Source of the DNA: an uncultured Methyloversatilis sp. | GTDB taxonomy: Bacteria > Pseudomonadota > Gammaproteobacteria > Burkholderiales > Rhodocyclaceae | Assembly (NCBI GenBank): GCA_964555165.1 | Contig: CAZKRN010000040.1 | Span: 1 to 30,916, forward strand | Length of the DNA: 30,916 bases | Reading direction: 5' to 3' | In this document: positions 882 to 16,871 of the stretch, in pieces | Numbering within the stretch: the stretch's first letter is position 1 | Layout of the letters: each line of letters opens with the position of its first letter | The notes under the pieces: generated by a model | Databases searched by the model: none | The model's input: only the letters and a program-made list of their open reading frames with translations | What the model was told of the DNA's origin: nothing | Made by a program: the position numbers and the translations under genes

Positions 882-2012
882 GTGCCCGGCCTTCTGCCCA
901 ATGTCGATCCCGAAGGACTGCTCGAATATTCGGTCGTCTATACCGACCGTGCGCTGAACCACATGTCCGCCGCCTTCCAGGGCGTCATGAAGGACATTTC
1001 GCGCGTGCTGAAGCAGGTCTACAACGCCAGGTCGGCCGTCGTCGTGCCCGGCAGCGGCACCTTCGGCATGGAAGCCGTGGCGCGACAGTTCGCCACCGAC
1101 AAGAAGGCGATGGTGATACGCAACGGCTGGTTCAGCTTCCGCTGGACGCAGATTTTCGAGATGGGCCGCATCCCGTCCGAACAGATCGTGCTGAAGGCGC
1201 GCCAGCCGGAGCCGGGTTCGCAGAAGGCGTTCGCGCCGGCGCCGGTCAAGGAAGTCGTCGCCGCCATCCTCGAACAGAAGCCCGCTGTAGTGTTCGCGCC
1301 GCAGGTCGAAACCTCGGCCGGCATGCTCCTGCCGGACGACTACCTGCGCGAGGTCGCCGCCGCCGTGCGCGAGGTCGATGGCCTGTTCGTGGTCGATGCC
1401 ATCGCCGCCGGCACCCTGTGGGTGGACATGGCCGCGCTCGGTATCGACGTGGTGGTGAGCGCGCCGCAGAAAGGCTGGAGCGGTTCGCCCTGCGCCGGTC
1501 TGGTCATGCTGGGCGAACGTGCCCGCGCGCGCATCGACGAAACGACCAGCACCAGCTACGCCTGCGACCTGAAGAAGTGGCTGCAGATCATGGAAGCGTA
1601 CGAGAACGGCGGCCACGCCTATCACGCCACCATGCCGACCGACGGCCTGGTGCAGTTGCGCAAGGTGATGCTGGAAACCGAGCAGTACGGTTTCGACCGG
1701 GTGAAGGCCAACCAGATCGAACTGGGTCGCCAGATACGCGCGCTGCTGGAAGCGAAGGGCTTCGCCAGCGTGGCGGCCGAAGGCTTCCAGGCGCCGTGCG
1801 TCGTGGTGAGTTACACCAGCGACCCGGACATCCAGAACGGCAAGAAGTTTGCCGCCCAGGGCATGCAGATCGCGGCCGGCGTGCCGCTGCAGGTCGACGA
1901 GCCGGCCGATTTCCGTTCCTTCCGCATCGGCCTGTTCGGTCTGGACAAGCTGCAGAACGTCGAACGCTCGGTCGCCAGCTTCAAGGCGACGCTGGACAAG
2001 GTCGCCGGCTGA
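882..2012 (+). CDS. Class-V (AGXT/SGAT-family) PLP aminotransferase; serine-glyoxylate / alanine-glyoxylate aminotransferase-like
   Basis: 376-aa ORF with GTG start at 882 preceded by GGAGAG at a 7-nt spacer. Contains the 'SAPQKGWSGSPCAG' block resembling the PLP-lysine region (S-x-QK) of class-V aminotransferases and an N-terminal 'GSGTFGMEA' motif. Codon usage matches the cbb genes. Confidence 0.75.
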   Translation: MPGLLPNVDPEGLLEYSVVYTDRALNHMSAAFQGVMKDISRVLKQVYNARSAVVVPGSGTFGMEAVARQFATDKKAMVIRNGWFSFRWTQIFEMGRIPSEQIVLKARQPEPGSQKAFAPAPVKEVVAAILEQKPAVVFAPQVETSAGMLLPDDYLREVAAAVREVDGLFVVDAIAAGTLWVDMAALGIDVVVSAPQKGWSGSPCAGLVMLGERARARIDETTSTSYACDLKKWLQIMEAYENGGHAYHATMPTDGLVQLRKVMLETEQYGFDRVKANQIELGRQIRALLEAKGFASVAAEGFQAPCVVVSYTSDPDIQNGKKFAAQGMQIAAGVPLQVDEPADFRSFRIGLFGLDKLQNVERSVASFKATLDKVAG

Positions 2013-2100: not shown

Positions 2101-3096
2101 TCACGCGGCGCTCTGGCGCCGGCCGGGTGCCGCCTCCTCCTGCCCGGCGCCGCACACCTGCATGCTCAAGCCGGTCGCCCGGCTGAGTTGATCCTGCACA
2201 TGCTTCTGGCCGTGCTCGATCAGGAAGCCCTGGAAGTCGGCCGCTACGCGGGTGAGCTGGCGCGATGCGAGCCGGATCACATACCACTCCCGTTCTATCG
2301 GATTGCCGGCTACCGGCAACAGGGTCAGTTCGCCGGATTCGATCTCGTGCCGGCAGATGTGCTGCGACATGAACGCAAGGCCGAAGCCGGCAGCGCACAT
2401 CTGCTTGATCGCCTCATTGCTGGACAGTTCGGAGCCGATGCGCAGATTCAGCCCGGCTTCGCGGAAAAGCTGTTCCAGCGTGGTGCGCGTGCCCGAACCG
2501 CGTTCGCGCACCAGCAGGTCTTCGCGCGCGATATCGCCCAGCGTCAGGCGCTTGCGCGCCATCAGCGGATGCGACGGTGCGGCGACGAAAGCCATGGTGT
2601 GGCGCGCAAACGGCGTGGCCACGGTTTTCAGGTCCTTGGGCGGGCGTCCCATGATGACCAGATCGACTTCCTGCGTGGTGAGCAGGCGCACGATTTCATC
2701 GCGGTTGCCGACCTTGAGTTTCACCTCGACGTTCGGCTGTTCGCGCGCAAACACCACGAGCATGCGCGGCACCAGGTACTCGGCGGTGGTCACCACACCG
2801 ATGCGCAGCCGGCGCGAGACGACGCCGCGATAGGCCGCCATTTCGTCCCCCGCCTCGCGCCACAGGTCGAGAATGCGCGCCGCGTAGTCGGCCATCAGCT
2901 GGCCGGCACCGGTCAGCCGTATGCCCCGCCCCTCGCGCTCGATCAGCGGCGTGCCGGCGGATTCCTCCAGCAGCTTGAGCTGTATCGACACCGCCGGCTG
3001 GGTCAGGTGGATTTCCTGCGCCGCACGCGAAACACTGCCCAGGCGGGCGACGGCGTGCAGTGCGGACAACTGGCGCAAGGTGGCGTTCTTCAGCAT
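2101..3096 (-). CDS. cbbR: LysR-type transcriptional regulator CbbR (RuBisCO operon activator)
   Basis: N-terminal 'MLKNATLRQLSALHAVARLGSVSRAAQEIHLTQPAVSIQLKLLEE' is a canonical LysR wHTH. The gene is divergent from cbbL with about 370 bp between them. Start chosen at ATG 3096 (the ORF track extends to 3159). C-terminal LysR substrate-binding domain of expected length (331 aa). Confidence 0.85.
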   Translation of the reverse strand: MLKNATLRQLSALHAVARLGSVSRAAQEIHLTQPAVSIQLKLLEESAGTPLIEREGRGIRLTGAGQLMADYAARILDLWREAGDEMAAYRGVVSRRLRIGVVTTAEYLVPRMLVVFAREQPNVEVKLKVGNRDEIVRLLTTQEVDLVIMGRPPKDLKTVATPFARHTMAFVAAPSHPLMARKRLTLGDIAREDLLVRERGSGTRTTLEQLFREAGLNLRIGSELSSNEAIKQMCAAGFGLAFMSQHICRHEIESGELTLLPVAGNPIEREWYVIRLASRQLTRVAADFQGFLIEHGQKHVQDQLSRATGLSMQVCGAGQEEAAPGRRQSAA

Positions 3097-4933
<1,837 letters not shown>

Positions 4934-4958: not shown

Positions 4959-5084
4959 GACGCCCTTCTCCCCTCGCCCGCATCGGCGGGAGAGGGGCCG
5001 GAGGTAAGGGAACGCGGCCGCGGCCCTCACCCGGCGCTGCGCGCCACCCTCTCCCGCCGATGCGGGCGAGGGATTGAAGAAACC
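4959..5084. repeat. GC-rich composite palindromic intergenic element (REP-like), copy A, between cbbL and cbbS
   Basis: The two arms are reverse complements of each other (CCCCTCGCCCGCATCGGCGGGAGAGGGG ... CCCTCTCCCGCCGATGCGGGCGAGGG). Each arm is itself a 12-bp hairpin. The element shares about 85% identity over about 70 nt, including the flanking 'GACGCCCTTCTCCCCTC' and 'TTGAAGAA', with a second copy at 9873-9978. Confidence 0.7.
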
Positions 5085-5532: not shown

Positions 5533-6465
5533 ATGAACGCCGCCACCCTGATCCCGACCGCGCCGGCAGCCGCCGACGAGGCGATGTCGCCGCGCGCGAT
5601 GGCTGCCGCATCCGGCGTGCAGGCGCTGCTCGATCGGCTCGACGCCGAACTGGTCGGGCTGGCGCCGGTCAAGGGCCGCATCCGCGACATCGCGGCGCTG
5701 CTGCTGATCGACCGGCTGCGCGCGCAGCAGGGCCTGCAGTCGCAGCCGCCCTCGCTGCACATGTGCTTCACCGGCAACCCCGGCACCGGCAAGACCACGG
5801 TGGCGCTGCGCATGGCCGAGGTGCTGCGCCAGCTCGGCTATGTGCGCAAGGGGCATCTGGTGGCGGTCACCCGCGACGACCTGGTGGGGCAGTTCATCGG
5901 CCACACCGCGCCCAAGACCAAGGAAGTGATCAAGAAGGCCATGGGCGGCGTGCTGTTCATCGACGAGGCCTACTACCTGTACCGGCCGGAAAACGAGCGC
6001 GACTACGGCCAGGAAGCCATCGAAATCCTGCTGCAGGTGATGGAGAACCACCGCGACGATCTGGTGGTGATCCTCGCCGGCTACGGGGACCGCATGGATA
6101 CCTTTTTCTCCAGCAACCCCGGCATGGCCTCGCGCATCGCGCACCACATCGACTTCCCGGACTACGGCGAGGACGAACTGATGCGCATTGCCGAGCTGAT
6201 GCTGGCCGGCCTGAACTACCACTTCGACCGTGCCGCGCACGAGGCCTTCGCGCGCTACATCGCGCTGCGCCGCCGGCTGCCGCATTTCGCCAACGCGCGT
6301 TCGGTGCGCAATGCGCTGGACCGCATCCGGCTGCGCCACGCCACCCGGCTGTTCGCGGCGGACAGCGCGCCCAGCCGCGACGCGCTGTGCGAACTCCGGG
6401 CGCCGGACGTGCTGGCCAGCCGTGTGTTCGACGCCGCCGGGATCGAGGACGGACATGCGCACTGA
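5533..6465 (+). CDS. cbbX: CbbX AAA+ RuBisCO activase (red-type)
   Basis: Walker A '[11 protein letters not shown]', Walker B '[11 protein letters not shown]', sensor 'ILAGY'. Sits in the expected position after cbbS. Start at ATG 5533 ('MNAATLIP...') rather than ORF-track 5413. Confidence 0.9.
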
Positions 6466-7222
6466 TGCCCTGGTTTTCGACGTCGACGGCACGCTGGCCG
6501 ACACCGAAGAGGCGCACCGCGTCGCCTTCAACCTGGCGTTCGAACAGGCCGGCCTGGGCTGGAAGTGGACCCGAGCCGACTACCGCCGGCTGCTCGCCAC
6601 CACAGGCGGCAAGGAGCGCATCGCGCGTCACATCGCGGCACTCGACCTGAGCGAGGCCGAGCGTGCCGAGCTGGTCGCGCGCATCCCGCATATCCACGCA
6701 AGCAAGACCCGTCTTTACAGTGCCGTGGTGCGCGACGGCGCGGTGCCGCTGCGCACCGGCATCGCCCGCCTGCTGGACGAAGCGGCTGCCGCCGGCTGCC
6801 GCCTGGCCATCGCCAGCACCACCACCGCAGCGAATATCGACGCACTGCTGCACGCCACGCTGGGCGCGCGCGCGCTCGACCTGTTCGGCGTCATCGCCTG
6901 CGGCGACCAGGTCGCGGCGAAGAAACCGGCGCCCGACATCTATCGCCTCGCGCTGCGCCACCTCGGTGTGCGCCCCGAACGCGCGATCGCCTTCGAGGAT
7001 TCCGCCAACGGCCTGCGCGCCGCCCGTGCCGCCGGACTGTGGACCGTGGTCACGCCCACCTACTGGAGCGAGGACCATGACTTCCCGGACGCCAGCCTGC
7101 GTCTTCCGCATCTGGGCGACCCGGCCACGCCGCTGACCGGCGAACCGGGCAACCGGCTGCGCGAACAGGCTTGGCTCACCTTCGCCGAACTGAACAGCCT
7201 GCGCGAGGCGGCGCTGTCATGA
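6455..7222 (+). CDS. cbbY: HAD-family phosphatase CbbY (xylulose-1,5-bisphosphate phosphatase-like)
   Basis: '[26 protein letters not shown]' HAD motif I (DxDGT). Motif III 'K' and motif IV 'FEDSANG' present. Overlaps cbbX by 11 nt and cbbE by 4 nt (ATGA). Position matches cbbY of characterised cbb operons. Confidence 0.8.
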
Positions 7223-8004
7223 GCGTGCGCATCGCCCCCAGCCTGCTGTCGGCCGACTTCGCTCGCCTCGGCGCGGAAGTGAGCGCGGTGATCGAGGCCG
7301 GCGCCGACCTCATCCACTTCGATGTCATGGACAACCACTACGTGCCCAATCTGACCGTGGGGCCACAGGTATGTCAGGCGATCAGGCCCTACGCGGTGCG
7401 GACCCCCGGCAGCGGCGGGCCGCTGCCGCCCCCCGAGGGGGCCGCCGACGGTCTCCGGAACGGCCGGGCGCCCGCCCGCACAGCGGTGCCGATCGACGTG
7501 CATCTGATGGTGAAGCCGGTCGATGCGCTGATCCCGATGTTCGCGAACGCCGGTGCCGACATCGTGTCCTTCCATCCGGAAGCGAGCGAGCACATCGACC
7601 GCACGCTCCAGCTCATCCACTCGCACGGCCTGAAAGCCGGGCTGGTGCTGAACCCGGCCACACCGCTCAATGTGCTGGACCACGTGCTGGACCGGCTCGA
7701 CCTTGTACTGCTCATGTCGGTGAACCCGGGCTTCGGCGGTCAGCGCTTCATCGAATCGGTACTGCCCAAGATCGAGGCGGTACGCCGTCGCATAACCGCC
7801 AGCGGCCGCGACATCTGGCTGGAAGTCGATGGCGGCGTGAATGCCGACAACGCCGGTCGCGTCGCCGCCGCCGGCGCCGACACCCTGGTCGCCGGGTCGG
7901 CCGTATTCACCGGCGGCCGTTATGCCGAATCCATCCGCACCCTGCGCGAACGCGCACTGGCCGGCCGAGCGCCGAGCCCCGAACCCGAGGCCCACCATGT
8001 CTGA
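7219..8004 (+). CDS. cbbE: Ribulose-phosphate 3-epimerase carrying an in-frame insertion of about 28 aa
   Basis: '[18 protein letters not shown]...[17 protein letters not shown]...[11 protein letters not shown]...[13 protein letters not shown]...VDGGV' are canonical Rpe motifs. Between 'CQAIR' and 'IDVHLMV' there are 35 residues where E. coli and Cupriavidus Rpe have about 7. Confidence 0.9.
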
Positions 8005-8710
8005 GCTGCAGCGCGCACTGAGCCGCATCCACGCCATCGCCTTCGACCTCGACGGCACCCTGGTCGACAGTGCCGCCGACATCTGGCACGCGCTGAACGC
8101 GGGCCTGAGCGAAGCCCGTCTGCCCGCCATCGATCTGCCCACGGTGCGCGGCTGGATAGGCGGCGGGCCGGACAAGCTCATCGCGCGCGCGCTCGACCAC
8201 CTGGGCAGACCGGGCGACGGCCCGCTGGCCGCGCGCCTGCGCGCCGACTTCGACCGCGCCACGCTGGCCGCGCCGCTCGATCGCGGCATGGTCTATGACG
8301 GCATCGACGAAATGGTCGAAGGGCTTTACGCACTGTGCCCGCTGGTGGTGGTGACCAACAAGCCGACTCTGCTGGCCCGCGCAGTGCTGGGCGCAGCCGG
8401 CCTGCTGCCCTTCATGTCGGCCGTGCATGGCGGCGACCGGAGCGAACTGCTCAAGCCCTCGCCGACCCTGCTCATCGAGGCCGCCGGTCGCCTGGCTGTC
8501 CAGGCGCGACAGATGCTGATGGTGGGCGACAGCGAGGCCGATCTGCAGGCGGCCCGGGCCGCCGGCTGCCCGGTCGCGCTGGTCGGCTGGGGATACGGGA
8601 CGGCCGGTGGCGCGCACGCCTCTGCCGCCGGCATCGCACCCTGCTTGCTGACGCGCCCGGGCGAGCTGCTGGCCGCGATGAGCGCGCGTTTCGAGGAAGA
8701 GACCGGGTAG
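7997..8710 (+). CDS. cbbZ: Phosphoglycolate phosphatase (HAD superfamily)
   Basis: '[29 protein letters not shown]' (DxDGT motif I), 'VVVTNKP' (motif II-like), '[14 protein letters not shown]' (motif IV). Start overlaps the cbbE stop by 8 nt. Confidence 0.8.
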
Positions 8711-8788: not shown

Positions 8789-9874
8789 ATGCCCACAGGC
8801 GGACGCACCACGCTGGTCCAGTACCTGATCGAAGAACGCCGTCGCCACCCGGAGGCGACCGGTGACCTCAACGCGCTGATCACCGACGTCGCACTCGCCT
8901 GCAAGGCGATCGCGCGCAAGGTGGCGTTCGGCGCCCTGGCCGGCGTCCTCGGCGTGAACGCTGTCGAGGCAGGCCGCATCAATGTGCAGGGCGAAGAACA
9001 GAAGACGCTGGACGTGCTCAGCAACGGCATCTTCCTGCGCGCCAACGAATGGGGCGGCCACCTCGCGGCGATGGCCTCGGAAGAGCTGGACGACATATCG
9101 CTGCCGCCGGCGCAGTACCCGCGCGGCAAATACCTGCTGGCTTTCGATCCACTGGACGGCTCGTCCAACATCGACGTTAACGTGTCGGTCGGCAGCATTT
9201 TCTCGATCACCCGCGCGCCCGATCCGGCACGCGACGCCACCGCGACCGACTTCCTGCAGCCGGGCCGCGAACAGGTGTGCGCCGGCTACGCGATCTACGG
9301 CCCCTCCACCATGCTGGTGATCACGCTGGGTCGCGGCACGCACGGCTTCACGCTGGACCCGGTGCTGGGCGAATGGGTGCTCAGCCACCCGGCGCTCAAG
9401 GTGCCAGCGGCCACCCGCGAGTTCGCGATCAACGCGTCGAACAGCCGTTTCTGGGAGCCGGCGGTGCGCCGCTACGTCGACGAATGCCTGGCCGGACGTA
9501 CCGGCCCCCGCTGCGCCGATTTCAATATGCGCTGGATCGCCTCGCTGGTCGCCGAAACCCACCGCATCCTGATGCGCGGCGGCGTCTTCCTCTACCCGAA
9601 AGACAACAAGGATCCGGCAAAGCCCGGCCGCCTGCGCCTGCTGTACGAAGCCAGCCCGATTTCCTTCCTGATCGAACAGGCGGGCGGCCGCGCCAGCACC
9701 GGTCGCAAGCGGCTCATGGACGTGCAGCCGGAAGCGCTGCACCAGCGCATCGGCTTCGTGTTCGGCTCGGCCGATGAGGTCGAGCGCATCGAGGCCTACC
9801 ACCGCGAGCCGCCCGCCGACACCTTCCAGTCGCCGCTGTTCGGCAAGCGCGGCCTGTTCGCCGATGCGCTCTGA
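8789..9874 (+). CDS. cbbF: Fructose-1,6-bisphosphatase class 1 (also likely sedoheptulose bisphosphatase)
   Basis: 'LVQYLIEE...[18 protein letters not shown]', '[11 protein letters not shown]', '[26 protein letters not shown]', '[10 protein letters not shown]' are FBPase-I signatures. RBS GGAGGAGAG. Confidence 0.9.
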
Positions 9875-9978
9875 CGCCCTTCTCCCCTCTCCCGCATCGG
9901 CGGGAGAGGGGCCGGGGGTGAGGGCACGGCGCTGCGCGCCACGCTCCCGCGCTGACGCAGGCGAGGGTTTGAAGAATC
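9873..9978. repeat. GC-rich composite palindromic intergenic element (REP-like), copy B, between cbbF and cbbP
   Basis: Starts at the cbbF stop codon (cTGAcgccc). Left arm 'CCCCTCTCCCGCATCGGCGGGAGAGGGG' is a perfect 12-bp hairpin. Right arm is degenerate relative to copy A. Same flanks (GACGCCCTTCTCCCCTC ... GGCGCTGCGCGCCAC ... GGCGAGGG(T/A)TTGAAGAA). Confidence 0.65.
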
Positions 9979-10892: not shown

Positions 10893-12932
10893 ATGAACGA
10901 CATGAACGCTTCCCTGTTCCTGCGCACGCAGTGCGCCAACGCTCTGCGCGCGCTGTCGATGGACGCGGTGCAGGCCGCGAATTCCGGCCACCCGGGCATG
11001 CCGATGGGCATGGCCGACATCGCCGAGGCGCTGTGGCGCCACCACCTGAAGCACGACCCGGCCGACCCGCACTGGCCGGACCGCGACCGCTTCGTGCTGT
11101 CCAACGGTCACGGCTCGATGCTGCTGTATGCGCTGTTGCACCTGTCGGGCTACGACCTGCCGATGGACGAGCTGCGCCGCTTCCGGCAGCTGCATTCGCG
11201 CACGCCCGGCCACCCCGAGGTCGACGTCACGCCGGGTGTCGAAACCACCACCGGCCCGCTCGGTCAGGGTATCGCCAACGCGGTCGGCATGGCGCTGGCG
11301 GAAAAGCTGCTCGCCGCCGAATTCAACCGGCCGGGCCATACGGTGATCGACCACCGCACCTGGGCGTTCGTCGGCGACGGCTGCCTGATGGAGGGCATCA
11401 GCCACGAAGCGTGTTCGCTGGCCGGCACCTGGCAGCTTTCCAAACTGGTGGTGTTCTACGACGACAACGGCATTTCCATCGACGGCGATGTAGGCGGCTG
11501 GTTCACCGACGATACGCCTGCGCGCTTCGAAGCCTATGGCTGGGCCGTGGTGCGCCATGTCGACGGCCACGACCCGGTGGCGCTGGACGCCGCCATCGAC
11601 ACCGCGCTGACCAGCGACCGGCCGGTGCTGGTCTGCTGCAGGACGCGCATCGGCCAGGGTTCGCCGAACCGCGCCGGCACCGCCAGGGCGCACGGCGAGG
11701 CGCTGGGCGAGGCGGAGATCGCGCTCACCCGCGAAGCGCTGGGCTGGCGCGCCCCACCCTTCGACATACCGGATGCACTGCGCGACGCCTGGTCGGCAAG
11801 GGAAGGCGGAGCGAGCGCCCACCGCGCCTGGCAGCAGCGCTTCGACCACTACGCCAGGGCCTTTCCCGAGCTGGCCGCCGAACTGCGTCGCCGGCTGCGG
11901 CGCGACGCGCCGCTCGCTTCGGACGCACTGCGCGCGCTCGAAGCCGCCTGCGAAGCCGCCGAAGCGCGTGCCGCCGCGGTCGCCACACGCAAGGCCTCGC
12001 AGGACTGCCTGCACATCGTCGCGCCGTCGATGCCCGAACTGCTCGGCGGCTCGGCCGACCTCACCGGCTCCAACCTGACCGACTGGAAGGGCCACCGGCC
12101 GCTCAAGGGAGAGGGCACCGGCAACCACGTGCATTACGGCGTGCGCGAATTCGGCATGGCGGCGGTGATGAATGGCGTGGCACTGCACGGCGGCTACCGG
12201 CCCTTCGGCGGCACCTTCCTCACCTTCTCCGACTACGCGCGCAACGCCATCCGCATGTCGGCGCTGATGAAGCTGCCGGTCACCTATGTATTCACGCACG
12301 ACTCGATCGGCCTCGGCGAGGACGGCCCCACCCACCAGCCGGTCGAGCACGCGGCCAGCCTGCGGCTCATTCCGGGGGTAGACGTCTGGCGGCCGGCCGA
12401 CGCCACCGAAACCGCAGTGGCCTGGCGCGCGGCACTGCGCCGTGGCGCCAGTCCCGATCCCGGCCCGACCTGCCTGCTGCTGTCGCGCCAGGCGCTGCCG
12501 CACGCCGGCGACGGCACGCCGCGCATCGACGACATCGCGCGCGGCGGCTACGTGCTGCGCGCACCGCGCGACGAACAGGTGTGCCTGATCGCCACCGGCT
12601 CCGAAGTCGCGATCGCGCTGCGCGCCGCCGAAGAGCTGGCCGCCGAAGGCATCGCCGCGCGCGTGGTGTCCATGCCCTGCGTCGAGGTGTTCGAGCGGCA
12701 GGAGGAGGACTGGCGCAGGACGGTGATTCCGCGCCACCTGCCGCGGCTGGCCATCGAAGCCGGGCGCACCGCGATGTGGTGGAAGTACGTCGGCGAACGG
12801 GGCGATGTGGTGGGGCTGGACCGCTTCGGCGAATCGGCGCCCGCCGCCCGGCTGTTCGATCTGTTCGGCCTGACGCCGCCGGCAGTCGCCGCGCGGGCGC
12901 GCGCGCTGCTCGCTGCGGGCGAACGCGCATGA
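10893..12932 (+). CDS. cbbT: Transketolase
   Basis: 679 aa. 'GHPGMPMGMADIA', 'GDGCLMEGISHEA', 'THDSIGLGEDGPTHQPVEHAASLR' are TPP-binding and transketolase motifs. RBS GGAGAG. Confidence 0.95.
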   Translation: MNDMNASLFLRTQCANALRALSMDAVQAANSGHPGMPMGMADIAEALWRHHLKHDPADPHWPDRDRFVLSNGHGSMLLYALLHLSGYDLPMDELRRFRQLHSRTPGHPEVDVTPGVETTTGPLGQGIANAVGMALAEKLLAAEFNRPGHTVIDHRTWAFVGDGCLMEGISHEACSLAGTWQLSKLVVFYDDNGISIDGDVGGWFTDDTPARFEAYGWAVVRHVDGHDPVALDAAIDTALTSDRPVLVCCRTRIGQGSPNRAGTARAHGEALGEAEIALTREALGWRAPPFDIPDALRDAWSAREGGASAHRAWQQRFDHYARAFPELAAELRRRLRRDAPLASDALRALEAACEAAEARAAAVATRKASQDCLHIVAPSMPELLGGSADLTGSNLTDWKGHRPLKGEGTGNHVHYGVREFGMAAVMNGVALHGGYRPFGGTFLTFSDYARNAIRMSALMKLPVTYVFTHDSIGLGEDGPTHQPVEHAASLRLIPGVDVWRPADATETAVAWRAALRRGASPDPGPTCLLLSRQALPHAGDGTPRIDDIARGGYVLRAPRDEQVCLIATGSEVAIALRAAEELAAEGIAARVVSMPCVEVFERQEEDWRRTVIPRHLPRLAIEAGRTAMWWKYVGERGDVVGLDRFGESAPAARLFDLFGLTPPAVAARARALLAAGERA

Positions 12933-13804
12933 GGGCCGCACGCATTGCCATCGACGGCGACGGCCCGGTCGCCCGCAGCGTGCTGCGTGCGCTGGCCGGT
13001 CGCGACGACCTGCATCTGGTCGCCATGAACGCGACCGGACACCCGCACGAGGTCGACACCGGCGTGCCGCGGCTGCGCGTGCGCGACGCGCGACGCCTGC
13101 CCTGGAAGCGGCACGCGGTCGACATCGTGCTCGACTGCAGCGGCCGCGACGCACGCGACCACCTCCGGGCCGGTGCGCGCAAGGTATTGAGCTGCACGTC
13201 GTCCGGCGCGGCGGCCGATACAACCGTCGTGTATGGCATCAATCATCGAGCGCTGCGCGACAGCCATCTGCACGTGCACAGCGCATGCCGGGTGACACAC
13301 TGCATCGCGCCGGTCGCGCGTGTGCTGCACGACGCCCTCGGCATTTCGAATGCGATGCTCACCCGCGTGCACAGCCGGCCACACGATGCCGAGCCGGAGC
13401 CCGCCGCCACGGCGCGACCCGCCGGTGCGGCCGAACATCTGCACCGCGTGCTGCCTGAACTGGATCACTGCTTCGACGAAACCGAACCGATGCGCATCGC
13501 CGGCGCGTACGCATCGCTGGTCGGCATGGTGTTCATCGCTCGCCGCGCCAGCACGGCGGATGAGGTGAACGGACTGCTGCAGGCCGCAGCCGCCGGCGAC
13601 TGGTCCGACATCGTGCGCTACGGCGACACGCCCTTCACCACCGCACTGTGCGACCGCGATACGCGCTCCTGCATCTTCGAATCCGGCTGGACCCAGGTGT
13701 CCGGCCGCATCGTGAAGGTGTGCGCCGGCAACCATGGCGACCTCGGGTACGCCCACCGCGTGGTCGACACCGCCCGCGCCATGCACCGCCCTCCTAGCCC
13801 CTAG
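12929..13804 (+). CDS. Highly divergent, shortened GAPDH-like protein at the cbbG position (possible pseudo-enzyme or decaying gene)
   Basis: 292 aa, collinear with GAPDH over its full length: 'RIAIDGDGPVARSVLRAL' aligns with 'KVGINGFGRIGRNVFRAA', 'SACRVTHCIAPVARVLHDALGI' with '[21 protein letters not shown]', 'LTRVHS' with 'MTTVHA', 'VLPEL' is retained. The glycine-rich NAD loop is degraded. There is a 1-aa insertion at the catalytic Cys motif and deletions of about 25 and 10 aa. ATG overlaps the tkt stop. Confidence 0.6.
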   Translation: MRAARIAIDGDGPVARSVLRALAGRDDLHLVAMNATGHPHEVDTGVPRLRVRDARRLPWKRHAVDIVLDCSGRDARDHLRAGARKVLSCTSSGAAADTTVVYGINHRALRDSHLHVHSACRVTHCIAPVARVLHDALGISNAMLTRVHSRPHDAEPEPAATARPAGAAEHLHRVLPELDHCFDETEPMRIAGAYASLVGMVFIARRASTADEVNGLLQAAAAGDWSDIVRYGDTPFTTALCDRDTRSCIFESGWTQVSGRIVKVCAGNHGDLGYAHRVVDTARAMHRPPSP

Positions 13805-13830
13805 CCCCTAGCCCCTAGCCCCTAGCCCCC
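13791..13830. repeat. (CCCCTAG)x5 heptanucleotide tandem repeat
   Basis: TAG at 13795, 13802, 13809, 13816 and 13823, exactly 7 nt apart. The stop codon of the GAPDH-like ORF (13802-13804) lies inside the repeat. Because 7 is not a multiple of 3, the array places a TAG in every forward frame. The fba RBS GAGGA follows immediately. Confidence 0.8.
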
Positions 13831-13842
13831 GAGGATTTGACC

Positions 13843-14859
13843 ATGCCCATGATTTCCCTGCGCCAGCTGCTGGATCACGCCGCCGAACACGGCTACGGCG
13901 TACCGGCCTTCAACATCAACAACCTGGAACAGATACAGGCCATCATGCAGGCGGCGCAGAAGGTGAATGCACCGGTCATCCTGCAGGCGTCGGCCGGCGC
14001 GCGGAAGTATGCGGGCGAGCCCTTCCTGCGCCGCATGGTGGAAGCGGCGGCGGAAATGTATCCTGCGCTGCCCATCGTGCTGCACCAGGACCACGGCGCC
14101 AGCCCGGCGGTATGCGTGCAGGCCATCCGCTCGGGCTTCACCAGCGTCATGATGGATGGCTCGCTGATGGAGGACGCGAAGACGCCCGCCAGCTATGAGT
14201 ACAACGTGGACGTGACGCGCCGCGTGGTCGACATCGCGCACGCGGTCGGCGTGTCGGTGGAAGGCGAACTGGGCTGCCTCGGTTCGCTCGAATCCGGCAC
14301 CGCTGGCGAGGAGGACGGCGTCGGCGCAGCCGGCGTGCTCACCCATGACCAGATGCTGACCGACCCGGACCAGGCCGCCGACTTCGTCGCCGCCACCGGC
14401 GTCGATGCGCTGGCCATCGCCATCGGCACCAGTCACGGCGCCTACAAGTTCTCGCGCGAGCCGACCGGCGACATCCTCGCCATCGACCGCATCAAGGCCA
14501 TCCATGCGCGCATCCCGGACACCCATCTGGTCATGCACGGGTCGAGCAGCGTGCCGCAGGACTGGCTGGGCATCATCCGCGCGCACGGCGGCGACATCCG
14601 CGAAACGTACGGCGTGCCGGTCGAGGAAATCCAGGAAGGCATCCGCCACGGCGTGCGCAAGGTGAATATCGACACAGACATCCGCCTTGCCATGACCGGC
14701 GCAATGCGCCGCGCGATGGCGCGCGACCCGTCGGAATTCGACCCGCGCAAGTTCATGAAAGACGCCATGACCGCCGCCCGCGACCTCTGCATCGAGCGCT
14801 TCGAAGCCTTCGGCTGCGCCGGCATGGCCGGGCGCATCGTGCTGCGCAAGGCGGCCTGA
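13843..14859 (+). CDS. cbbA: Fructose/sedoheptulose-bisphosphate aldolase, class II (Calvin-cycle subtype)
   Basis: '[56 protein letters not shown]', '...LHQDHG', 'SVMMDGS' and '[11 protein letters not shown]' are class-II FBA signatures. RBS GAGGA 7 nt upstream. Confidence 0.92.
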
Positions 14860-14875
14860 GCATCGCGAAAACACA

Positions 14876-14974
14876 CCCTCGTGGGAGCGGTCCTCCGACC
14901 GCGACCGCGGCGCCCGACTGGCAGACAGCGCTTGATCACAGGCCGCGTCGGGGTCAGAAGACCCCTCCCACAGG
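14876..14974. repeat. Long imperfect inverted repeat (arms of about 35 bp, spacer about 30 bp) between convergent fba and helicase genes; candidate bidirectional terminator or REP-like element
   Basis: Left arm 'CCCTCGTGGGAGCGGTCCTCCGACCGCGACCGCGGC' pairs with the reverse complement of 'GCCGCGTCGGGGTCAGAAGACCCCTCCCACAGG', with about 80% complementarity including small indels. No U-tract. Confidence 0.45.
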
Positions 14975-15008
14975 CTCTCGCCCGGAGCAACCCGATGCAC
15001 GAACCGCA

Positions 15009-16871
15009 TCAAGCGGTTGCAGCGGTCCCGAGTATGGCCTTCAGCCGCGCCGCGAACCCGCGCTCGGCGGAAGCGGTCACCAGCAGGCGCTCGGTCGAAC
15101 GTGTCATCGCGACATAGAGCAGTTTGGCGTCAGCCGCCACGCGCTCCGTGTCATCCTCTGCTCGCGGCAGCGTGTGGGTGCCGCAAACGACCATGAAGGG
15201 AAACTCCAGCCCCTTGCTGCTGTGCATGGTCATCAGTTTCACTGTGTCTTCCGACGGGCTGAAGCGGCGCTTCGATTGCGAATCGGACAGCCAGTGCACC
15301 GGTATCGATGACGCCTTCAGATAGCGATGCAGGCGGTCGCCGATGTACCTGTCGGGGCAGGCGATACACATGTCGGCCCAGGCCACGCCGCGCTCCGCGT
15401 GCATCTTCTTCAGCGTGCGGGTGATGAGCGCCATTTCGTCGCGGTCGGATCCGACGATGCGCAGCACCGGTGGCGGGCCGCGACGCCCGCTCGACTGAGG
15501 CTCGATCAGTGGCACATGATCGTCGTCGGCATCTGCCGCGGTCAGGTAGACGCGAGCAAAGTCGTAGGCGAAACGAATCACATCCTCGGTGTTGCGATAG
15601 TTCAGCTTGAGTACCGTGCTGCGGCCACGTGCTTGTATGCCCACGCTGGACAGGCTGAAGTCCAGGCCACCACGTTTGCCGTAGATCGACTGCGCGTCGT
15701 CATACAGCATCAGGAAGGAACTGGTTTCCGGGTCGACCATGCCAACGATGAGGCGCAACCACTCCGGCGCGAAATCGTGCCCCTCGTCGATCATCACCGC
15801 ACCGTATTGAGCGCGCGGTATGAGGCCCTTGTCGACGGCGTCGATCACGGTGGATACGAGCTGCTCGAAATAGTCCTTTCCCGTTGCCGGGCGCTCGACG
15901 TGATAGGCCCGCAACTGTTCGCTGCACCAGTCGTGGAAGTGATAGACGCTCACCTTGTCAGCGATACCACGGCTGGCGATAAGGTCACGCAGCCGTGCGG
16001 CCAGCGCGATGTTGTAGCAGAGCACGAGAATGGGTTTCGCGAGCAGCTTGGCCAGATGCAGGCAACGGTAGCCAAGGATGAGCGTCTTGCCGGAGCCGGC
16101 CACGCCATGGATGACGCGGTGCCCGTCGCCCAGGCTGCGGGCCAGCAGTTCCTGCTGCATGTCCATCACCTTGACGAGATCCGGCAGCACGCTATCGGCC
16201 GAAGCTTCGTCATCGACCTCAGCAAACAGGTCCGCCTGCTGATGACCGATGCGCACCTCCGGAAACAGGTGCCAACGGATGCGGTCGATCTGCGGCAGCG
16301 TGAGACTTTGCGGAAAGCTCACGTCAAACATGCTCCACAGCCGCTGCTGAAACTCCTCGGCGTCGCTTGCCTCGCGCATTTCGTCGGCGCAGATGACGCG
16401 ATGTGGCGGCAGAACGTCGCCGAGGTCGGTACCGTCGAACTGCTTGCGCGTCATGCCGCTGAGCACTACGCCATAGCCCCAGGGCAGTACGAGCTTGCCG
16501 CGATATCGACCGTCCTGTTGAACCAGCTGGGGATCGCGCTCCAAGTCGCCGATGAGCTGATAGGCGCACTGCCTTACCTGTTCCAGCGGATTGCTCACCA
16601 CCCGCGGTCCCGCCTCGGTCAGTATCTGCGCCGATACGCGGTCGATGGACTGTATGGTGGCGAGCCGCCAGTCCTTCACTTCCAGCAGCAGCAGGCCACG
16701 GCGGGGGTGCAGGACGATGAAGTCCGAGTACCGCCGGCGGTCGCCGACCGGCATGTCATACCAGCACAGGTAGTCGTCTTCCAGCTTGTCTTCGAGCCGC
16801 TGCGCAAAACGTCGTTCGCCCGCCTGCATTCGGGACGTACACGCGCTGTATGAGGGAATGAGCGTAGCCAT
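15009..16871 (-). CDS. NERD-domain + UvrD/Rep-like superfamily-1 helicase
   Basis: N-terminal 'YLCWYDMPVGDRRRYSDFIVLHPRRGLLLLEVKDW' resembles NERD (nuclease-related domain). Walker A 'GVAGSGKTLILGY', 'AVMIDEGHDF' (Walker B / motif II), C-terminal 'MTMHSSKGLEFPFMVV' (UvrD motif V/VI-like). ATG at 16871, 620 aa. Confidence 0.75.
   Translation of the reverse strand: MATLIPSYSACTSRMQAGERRFAQRLEDKLEDDYLCWYDMPVGDRRRYSDFIVLHPRRGLLLLEVKDWRLATIQSIDRVSAQILTEAGPRVVSNPLEQVRQCAYQLIGDLERDPQLVQQDGRYRGKLVLPWGYGVVLSGMTRKQFDGTDLGDVLPPHRVICADEMREASDAEEFQQRLWSMFDVSFPQSLTLPQIDRIRWHLFPEVRIGHQQADLFAEVDDEASADSVLPDLVKVMDMQQELLARSLGDGHRVIHGVAGSGKTLILGYRCLHLAKLLAKPILVLCYNIALAARLRDLIASRGIADKVSVYHFHDWCSEQLRAYHVERPATGKDYFEQLVSTVIDAVDKGLIPRAQYGAVMIDEGHDFAPEWLRLIVGMVDPETSSFLMLYDDAQSIYGKRGGLDFSLSSVGIQARGRSTVLKLNYRNTEDVIRFAYDFARVYLTAADADDDHVPLIEPQSSGRRGPPPVLRIVGSDRDEMALITRTLKKMHAERGVAWADMCIACPDRYIGDRLHRYLKASSIPVHWLSDSQSKRRFSPSEDTVKLMTMHSSKGLEFPFMVVCGTHTLPRAEDDTERVAADAKLLYVAMTRSTERLLVTASAERGFAARLKAILGTAATA

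Follow-up and report, generated by a model that had tools for sequence, protein, structure and literature searches.

The DNA analysed here (the window), 30,916 nucleotides of a contig from an uncultured Methyloversatilis species, carries the cbb (Calvin-cycle) operon, as assigned from the Pfam families of its genes. Its RuBisCO large subunit, phosphoribulokinase and FBPase are identical to RefSeq proteins of Methyloversatilis sp. Within this operon lies rpe (cbbE), and the subject of our analysis is an in-frame insert of 29 codons, V60 to T88, in the coding sequence of that gene (Table 1). The edges of the insert are uncertain by about one codon. The insert-free reference is provided by the nearest Methyloversatilis orthologues, which have 232 amino acids and read PYA-TVPIDVH at this position. 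The G+C content of the insert is 86.9%, compared with 67.1% for the remainder of rpe. A first-pass annotation, made from the sequence alone, had described a GC-rich in-frame insert at this place, and our alignments agree with it; the interval given there, 7387-7473, starts 9 nt upstream of position 7396 and stops 9 nt short of 7482.

The encoded protein matches PF00834 with E = 7.5e-84 in two stretches with the insert lying between them, and it matches solved Rpe structures in the PDB with E = 2.8e-86 (phmmer), in alignments that leave residues ~63-89 of the window protein unmatched. The motifs HFDVMD, DVHLMV and EVDGG flanking the insert, which we take to be the catalytic and metal-binding motifs of Rpe, are invariant columns in alignments of the family, and both sides are intact. 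The ATG of rpe overlaps the stop codon of the cbbY-like gene upstream (as ATGA), and the 3′ end of rpe overlaps the start of gph by 8 nt. These overlaps in the sequence suggest that translation may be coupled across the insert-bearing gene.

The insert is genuine and is not an artefact of assembly, a possibility that the first-pass annotation had allowed for, because the same allele is present in at least six independent assemblies and in RefSeq. Four independent Logan assemblies encode the identical insert-bearing protein and a further two encode a variant differing at one residue, and the RefSeq protein WP_374336064.1 (Methyloversatilis sp., from a 429-kb contig) is a member of the same cluster. 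The insert sequence is open in all six frames, with a length divisible by three, and thus insertion leaves the host gene unbroken.

Rpe proteins carrying the insert (filled forms) fall into three groups in alignments. One is that of the window (P0241, P0242 and P0001), the second is a Methyloversatilis group (P0002 and P0289-P0293), and the third is a single distant metagenomic Rpe of 265 amino acids (P0033) that shares 80% identity with the window protein when the loop is excluded. Very similar proteins lack the insert (empty forms). The filled P0290 and P0293 are 99.0% identical to the empty P0015 outside the loop, and the filled P0002 is 97.6% identical to the empty P0012. In a neighbor-joining tree of Rpe calculated without the loop the filled and empty forms are interspersed, and all the empty forms, outgroups included, have a common [YWH]ATV junction. 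From these sequence relationships we conclude that the empty rpe is ancestral, with the filled allele derived and patchily distributed. The segment is therefore an insertion and not a loop common to all relatives, as had been proposed from the sequence of the window. Most close relatives with the same operon lack the insert in rpe, and a degenerate motif for its conserved core (see below) had no match in rpe among 185,579 species-representative genomes, which is compatible with a minority allele. We looked for a footprint of recombination beside the insert by comparing the filled locus L001 with the empty locus L004; six differences in 45 nt against a mean of ~2.5 were unconvincing.

A related segment is found in a second gene. 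The conserved peptide core PPPEGAxDGLRxGR was back-translated into a degenerate nucleotide motif, and this was used to scan the 185,579 genomes. The sole match lies in a Burkholderiaceae metagenome-assembled genome (MAG; locus L011), on the strand opposite to a ribF gene and not in rpe. The RibF protein of L011 has ~30 residues without counterpart in solved RibF structures. An element of ~80 nt is present there reverse-complemented and in frame, as it is in the ribF genes of a clade of Burkholderiales, where it provides ~28 extra residues, and a large set of Burkholderiales RibF proteins (75-96% identical) bears the insert ATGARPLRSPSPAPSGGGPGTPGPGAVM and variants of it. Shorter inserts in P0124, P0126, P0148 and P0151 have the appearance of internal in-frame deletions. 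Insert-free RibF also exists (P0138-P0143; P0138 at 85% identity), and the similarity of these insert-free proteins to filled ones exceeds that between some of the filled ones. The filled locus L013 and the empty locus L014 are syntenic. Across ribF and rpe the carriers amount to dozens of protein clusters, and complete assemblies with the element include, besides the Methyloversatilis genome that encodes WP_374336064.1, GCA_046348365.1, GCA_015075165.1 and the MAG JBGAMU01. In one of the ribF loci, L015 from an Ideonella sp. MAG, four extra genes, one of them LtrA-like (PF06772), lie between ribF and ileS at 11197-15473; in the other loci ribF and ileS are adjacent or nearly so.

The relationship between the two inserts was tested reciprocally, with nhmmer models built from the copies of one gene only and run against 146 kb of GC-rich loci, an arrangement that avoids circularity. 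The model made from rpe copies found the ribF inserts with E = 7.6e-13, 1.1e-10 and 6.5e-7; these matches lie on the minus strand and coincide exactly with the inserted segment. The model made from ribF copies found the rpe inserts with E = 1.5e-11 to 1.6e-6. The only other matches of the single-gene models in the 146 kb were two with E ~0.25, one of which is a palindromic self-match. Smith-Waterman alignment of the rpe insert with the ribF element gave a score of 48, compared with 17.7 ± 2.6 for shuffled sequences. Over the 80 columns of the element the rpe copy at L002 is 90% identical to the ribF copy at L011 and 78% identical to the rpe copy of the window, and it is 85% identical over the element to the ribF copy at L013. 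On the evidence of these sequences we judge that the rpe and ribF inserts are homologous at the level of DNA. Since the single-gene models find each other's targets, and the L002 copy is nearer to ribF of L011 than to the window copy, the sequences place the source of the insert outside rpe.

The comparison of copies points to a conserved nucleic acid structure. A consensus fold calculated with RNAalifold from eight copies comprises three consecutive hairpins; a ninth copy, from the ribF locus L018, was added later and was not used in the derivation. The two palindromes quoted in the first-pass annotation are present in the window copy, GGCAGCGGCGGGCCGCTGCC being hairpin 1 and CCCCCGAGGGGG lying within hairpin 2. 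Standard base pairs occupy 89% of the cells of the consensus structure, compared with 41-52% when the partners are slid by one to three columns. Nine pairs exhibit double-sided changes (one to six in the slid controls). Covariation is scored at 0.257, and the maximum is 0.074 for the slid controls and 0.113 for shuffles; none of 500 shuffles reached the observed value. Addition of the ninth copy left the figures unchanged, with 89.1% paired. Several of the compensatory substitutions change the residues encoded by the two arms of a stem, as with P..G, R..R and A..A in RibF. Hairpin 3 is degenerate in the window copy, where 4 of its 15 pairs are broken, and its outer arms GGCGACGGGC and GCCCGTCGCC are perfectly complementary in L002 and L011. 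The insert taken alone folds no better than dinucleotide-preserving, composition-matched shuffles (z = -0.44), and for that reason the evidence for structure is drawn from the comparison of copies. The ends of the insert, GGNCCCCCGG and CCGGGCGCCC, are imperfectly complementary, and the comparative fold favors the local hairpins instead.

Table 1. Positions of the rpe insert, its hairpins, the surrounding genes and repeats, and the copies in ribF (window numbering unless a locus is named).
Feature	Position	Strand	Description and basis
cbbR	2101-3159	-	Pfam
cbbL	3467-4933		Pfam
REP-like composite repeat	4959-5081		cbbL-cbbS spacer; 26-nt perfectly complementary arms at 4971-4996 and 5047-5072
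cbbY-like HAD phosphatase	6455-7222		Directly 5′ of rpe; Pfam
ATGA stop/start overlap	7219-7222		cbbY-like gene and rpe
rpe (cbbE)	7219-8004	+	261 aa; PF00834, PDB matches, open reading frame list, operon context
GCGGTGC direct repeat, left copy	7393-7399	+	7 nt; sequence
In-frame insert	7396-7482	+	87 nt; alignment to insert-free orthologues, structure gap, G+C content
Shared element core	7399-7482	+	nhmmer, with single-gene models and with all copies
Match of ribF-only model	7403-7474		nhmmer
Hairpin 1	7408-7427	+	8-bp stem, 4-nt loop; compensatory double changes at 4 of 8 pairs
Hairpin 2	7428-7442	+	GCCCCCC-GAG-GGGGGC; 94% of cells paired; most conserved part of the element
Palindrome within hairpin 2	7430-7441		
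Hairpin 3	7443-7480	+	Up to 15 pairs with bulge
GCGGTGC direct repeat, right copy	7483-7489	+	7 nt; sequence
rpe/gph overlap	7997-8004		8 nt
gph	7997-8710		Pfam
fbp	8789-9874		Pfam
REP-like composite repeat	9873-9976		cbbF-cbbP spacer
cbbX, prk, tkt, fba			Further genes of the window; Pfam
ribF element copy, L011	2345-2427	-	
ribF element copy, L013	10205-10288		
ribF element copy, L015	10205-10285		
ribF element copy, L016	1611-1694		
ribF element copy, L018	~882-971		

The likely effect on the protein was examined using an AlphaFold2 model of the window Rpe, calculated from a 54-sequence alignment with a mean predicted local distance difference test score (pLDDT) of 82.5. The model places β1 at residues 4-8, α1 at 14-26, β2 at 32-36, α2 at 44-58 and β3 at 92-96. 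No secondary structure is assigned to residues 62-87, and pLDDT falls below 50 for residues 69-83. The remainder of the model superposes on solved Rpe structures with template modelling (TM) scores of 0.90-0.92 normalized to the target (0.92 for 7sbj). As the chain of the model runs from α2 through a section without secondary structure into β3, the insert is predicted to form a disordered loop at the α2-to-β3 turn. This lies on the N-terminal, or bottom, face of the predicted barrel. In TIM barrels the catalytic face is formed by the C-terminal ends of the strands, and the N-terminal face is opposite to it. The inserted peptide is rich in Pro, Gly, Ala and Arg. The proposal of a Pro/Gly-rich surface loop is thus in accord with the predicted structure; the position that had been suggested for it, between β1 and α1, is not. 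In a corresponding prediction for RibF, insert residues 67-101 have pLDDT below 50 and lie between two helices of the FAD-synthetase domain.

The α2-β3 loop of betaproteobacterial cbb-type Rpe occurs in many short variants, including YATV, YAVRGAEPV, YAVRGPSHEPV, YCHRLTRDGEKTAV and YCISAPNSASGSGTI, and on these sequences we consider the site to be a general hotspot for insertions and deletions. Some intermediate loops such as YAVRGPSHEPV might be remnants of the element, or its precursors. In a codon alignment judged by eye, the 239-residue Rpe with this loop is similar at only ~10 of 18 positions over the first ~18 nt.

Substitution rates differ between the insert and its host gene. Comparing the window with L002, the insert has dN = 0.285 and dS = 0.29, a ratio of ~1, and the rest of rpe has dN = 0.17 and dS = 0.92, a ratio of 0.19. 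The inserted peptide therefore escapes the purifying selection to which the enzyme is subject. In total nucleotide divergence the two parts are alike (24% in the insert and 25% in the rest of the gene), and the proportion of synonymous differences, pS, is 0.24 in the insert compared with 0.53 in the rest of rpe. The insert DNA has thus changed more slowly than neutral sites, which is compatible either with structure constraining the DNA or RNA or with an insert whose common origin is more recent than that of the genes. In ribF the dS of the insert is like that of the rest of the gene, with dN/dS of 0.5-0.9, the pattern expected of a loop inherited vertically under weak constraint.

The reading that we favor, with moderate confidence, is that the insert is a coding palindromic element, rich in hairpins and of lateral origin, which the protein tolerates as a disordered loop on its surface. 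A very GC-rich DNA element of ~80-87 nt with three hairpins would have arrived in rpe from outside the gene, would be read through to add ~28 residues in the form of a disordered loop, and would leave an Rpe that is presumably still functional. The element would have moved by non-autonomous transposition or by templated copying, and would have spread among rpe alleles by homologous recombination or by repeated targeting of the same site. We place it in the protein-coding palindromic class because the same element is found in frame, and in the opposite orientation, in ribF. The general idea of the first-pass annotation, an inserted, repeat-derived and tolerated element, is retained in this reading, and its miniature repeat is upheld in the sense that this DNA element has copies at another place, in ribF. 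The multi-copy family that the term implies was not recovered: there is one copy in the 30.9-kb window, no second in ~115 kb of related loci, and none in the 146 kb outside rpe and ribF.

There are well-described precedents for such insertions. Rickettsia palindromic elements (RPEs) and other transposable elements of the miniature inverted-repeat type (MITEs) have been found fused in frame into conserved genes (PMC2229807, PMC10969869), and repetitive extragenic palindromes (REPs) within genes can encode 20-82 residues, with examples in the betaproteobacterium Thauera; the authors of that work argued that these are neutral insertions in loops or linkers (PMC3733652). Like an RPE, the rpe/ribF element is a short, hairpin-forming palindromic DNA inserted in frame into conserved housekeeping genes, with the same element in unrelated genes, and RPEs are translated as an extra peptide deemed compatible with fold and function (Ogata et al. 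2000 and 2002, reviewed in PMC2229807 and PMC10969869). Absence from close orthologues and a predicted surface loop are further features in common. RPEs are 105-146 bp long and occur in tens of copies per genome, within and between genes of obligate intracellular Alphaproteobacteria. The present element, by contrast, has ~84 nt with 87% G+C and three separate hairpins rather than one long stem, and it occurs in free-living Betaproteobacteria, in two genes only and in both orientations. Genomes that carry RPEs are AT-rich, and this opposite base composition would make relatedness of sequence very unlikely.

The element also resembles intragenic REPs, REP dimers and REP clusters, which are GC-rich stem-loops, often grouped and sometimes wholly inside open reading frames, and Thauera is a relative of Methyloversatilis (PMC3733652). 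It differs from REPs tagged with GTAG or CGTC (the criterion of PMC3733652) in having no unpaired tag: there is no GTAG or CTAC in any copy, and CGTC occurs only inside stem 3, where it is paired with GACG. The peptides listed for the intragenic REPs of Thauera are unrelated to the insert peptide. REPINs are mobilized by RAYT transposases (PMC3116915); the high copy number of REPs and REPINs was not found for our element, and no link to a RAYT is known. Like the MITEs that contain open reading frames, such as the 107-bp Correia element, ERIC and YPAL (PMC2229807), it is small, structured and non-autonomous, and capable of in-frame fusion. MITEs have defined terminal inverted repeats and target-site duplications (often TA), are 100-200 bp long and are multi-copy, whereas the terminal repeats and target-site duplication of our element are unconvincing. 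Finally, in its position at an α-to-β turn on the non-catalytic face, in a loop already variable in length, the insert is like an ordinary TIM-barrel indel, and its consequences for the protein are probably no different from those of other tolerated indels in loops. Ordinary indels, however, have no homologue on the opposite strand of another gene, and no conserved nucleic acid structure.

A kinship closer at hand had been suggested, with the palindromic repeats between the genes of the window. Two REP-like composite repeats of the type CCCTCTCCCGC...GCGGGAGAGGG, ~105-123 nt long and 86-89% identical, lie in spacers of the operon (Table 1), where they could act as intra-operon hairpins. Their Smith-Waterman scores against the insert are 11-20, compared with 15 ± 2.6 for shuffles; 31 of 500 shuffles attained the top score, 20, and the other three comparisons lie within the shuffles. 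The element models had no match in either repeat, and we reject the relationship. Elsewhere in the operon, fbp has a 4-residue in-frame indel near residues 56-60 relative to other Methyloversatilis FBPases (93% identical), which read GVLG----SAGSGNVQ at this site. This is another small loop-length polymorphism within the same operon.

A number of observations weigh against the reading of a coding palindromic element, and we collect them here. The covariation figures come from nine sequences at two loci, with a structure derived from eight of them, and are suggestive. That two rpe lineages only 80% identical have the insert at one site, in one frame and in one orientation would need either site-specific insertion or short-patch recombination. 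Terminal inverted repeats and a target-site duplication were sought by comparing the rpe and ribF copies, without a convincing result. The window insert lies between the two copies of a 7-nt direct repeat, GCGGTGC, which could be a target-site duplication or could arise by chance; it is a feature of the window allele, conserved at five of seven positions in L001, weak in L002 and absent at ribF, and because of this degeneracy no target-site duplication can be claimed. Filled and empty alleles differ by 87 nt in rpe and by 84 nt in ribF. No junction model gives the YATVP of the empty rpe site exactly, so that neither the boundaries of the insertion nor a target-site duplication are fixed. There is no linked transposase, and no gene like those of IS200/IS605 in the annotated loci.

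The remaining points of this kind concern further copies. The host genes found are rpe and ribF only. Two exact-pattern scans of metagenomes gave no matches, but even L001, a known JGI contig, is apparently missing from that collection. With the 30-residue insert peptide as a phmmer query there were no matches among 1.84 billion cluster representatives, a null that is uninformative since insert-bearing variants are seldom the representatives of clusters at 50% identity. When two variants of the element were compared by blastn with 7.3 Gb of plasmids the matches were at chance level (E ≥ 6e-3) and mostly in actinomycetes, and a scan of viral contigs with a 19-nt core gave nothing convincing. 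Two individual candidates were discarded. At the best betaproteobacterial blastn match, in a Cupriavidus plasmid (L017), the element model is silent, giving E = 6.7 elsewhere in that locus; the single viral match shares only the CCCCCCGAGGGGG hairpin in an unrelated context of lower G+C, and is judged to be chance. A word-indexed protein search with a 42-residue query centered on the insert returned no candidate with three shared words, and Rfam gave nothing above noise for the insert. These searches are narrow or insensitive for a low-complexity segment of 30 residues, and because of that we do not count them against the existence of a family.

An explanation that is possible, and clearly less likely than the one we favor, is a single ectopic copying event. 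A patch of ~84 nt would have been copied once between ribF and rpe in a genome containing both genes, through templated repair of a double-strand break or template switching at a hairpin, and the filled allele would then have spread through homologous recombination in the conserved flanks. In its favor, all searches gave just the two host genes, with no second copy in the window or the ~115 kb. It is also consistent with the nesting of the rpe copy of L002 beside the ribF copies of L011 and L013, with the interspersion of filled and empty rpe among near-identical sequences, as for a recombining indel, and with the lack of clear terminal inverted repeats, target-site duplication or transposase. 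However, the hosts differ in lineage, Burkholderiales for ribF and mainly Methyloversatilis for rpe, and thus an extra transfer between lineages would be required. In addition, the compensatory upkeep of hairpins at both loci suggests an element with structural properties of its own, and the failure to find more copies comes from searches that are insensitive.

A bolder form of the element hypothesis seems to us rather unlikely. It holds that the insert belongs to an undescribed betaproteobacterial family, of ~84 nt with three hairpins and ~87% G+C, that inserts in frame in coding sequences and may prefer particular sites. Such a preference is possible in that two lineages, 80% identical, have the insert at one and the same rpe codon. 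In such a family the stems would be kept by selection, or by a bias of hairpin-directed repair, while the encoded amino acids change.

We also considered whether the structure or the peptide is kept for a function, and regard this as doubtful. Hairpins in the mRNA of the cbb transcript might modulate the transit of ribosomes or RNA polymerase, or RNA processing; alternatively the proline-rich sequence PPPEGAxDGLRxGRAP might form an interaction loop. Either is compatible with an origin as an inserted element, by whichever route. The maintenance of the stems by compensatory, partly non-synonymous changes would be consistent with a function, as would the divergence of the insert, slower than that of the synonymous sites of rpe, and the conservation of the core peptide motif between rpe lineages that are 80% identical. 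Against this, the insert is missing from most close relatives with the same operon, it decays in ribF through internal in-frame deletions, its dN/dS is close to 1 in rpe and 0.5-0.9 in ribF, and the peptide is predicted to be disordered. Moreover no single function of an RNA or a peptide fits both genes, because the element is present in both orientations in genes that are unrelated.

The last two alternatives are effectively ruled out. Growth of the loop in place by slippage or duplication, with the likeness to ribF a coincidence of composition, is very improbable; the length variation of the α2-β3 loop and the unexceptional fold of the single sequence would be in keeping with it, but the reciprocal single-gene matches are confined to the two inserts, copies in unrelated genes and on opposite strands are up to 90% identical over 80 nt, and no tandem or internal duplication is visible. 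An artefact or an untranslated segment (an assembly or sequencing error, ribosomal bypass, an intron or an intein) has a negligible probability: extreme G+C and hairpins can cause misassembly, and GTG codons stand at both edges of the insert in the window allele, but the allele recurs in the independent assemblies and RefSeq noted above, L001 and L002 lack matching edge codons, the frame is kept and free of stop codons in all copies and length variants of both genes, an intein or a group I or II intron would be far longer than 87 nt, and there is no Rfam match and no Pfam domain besides that of Rpe. Programmed bypass as in T4 gene 60 or the mitochondrial byps elements has matched take-off and landing codons, and its gap need not keep the frame and usually contains stops.

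In-frame palindromic insertions are textbook for Rickettsia and scattered among REPs, and they have rarely been documented in free-living bacteria of high G+C, or where filled and empty alleles are still 99% identical. Inserts of this kind can mislead filters on the length of orthologues, phylogenetic markers based on indels, and annotation based on structure. The Methyloversatilis alleles provide a natural experiment, in which the same enzyme exists with and without a 29-residue loop in one genus, and the pair could serve to trace such inserts from their origin through their spread to their decay, and to measure the burden that they place on the enzyme and on the operon transcript. Provided that further copies confirm them, the compensatory changes of the stems in two coding regions would indicate selection or biased repair acting on nucleic acid structure. 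Should the element indeed represent an undescribed family, this would suggest a function at the level of the nucleic acid, or a mechanism of maintenance, operating inside essential genes.

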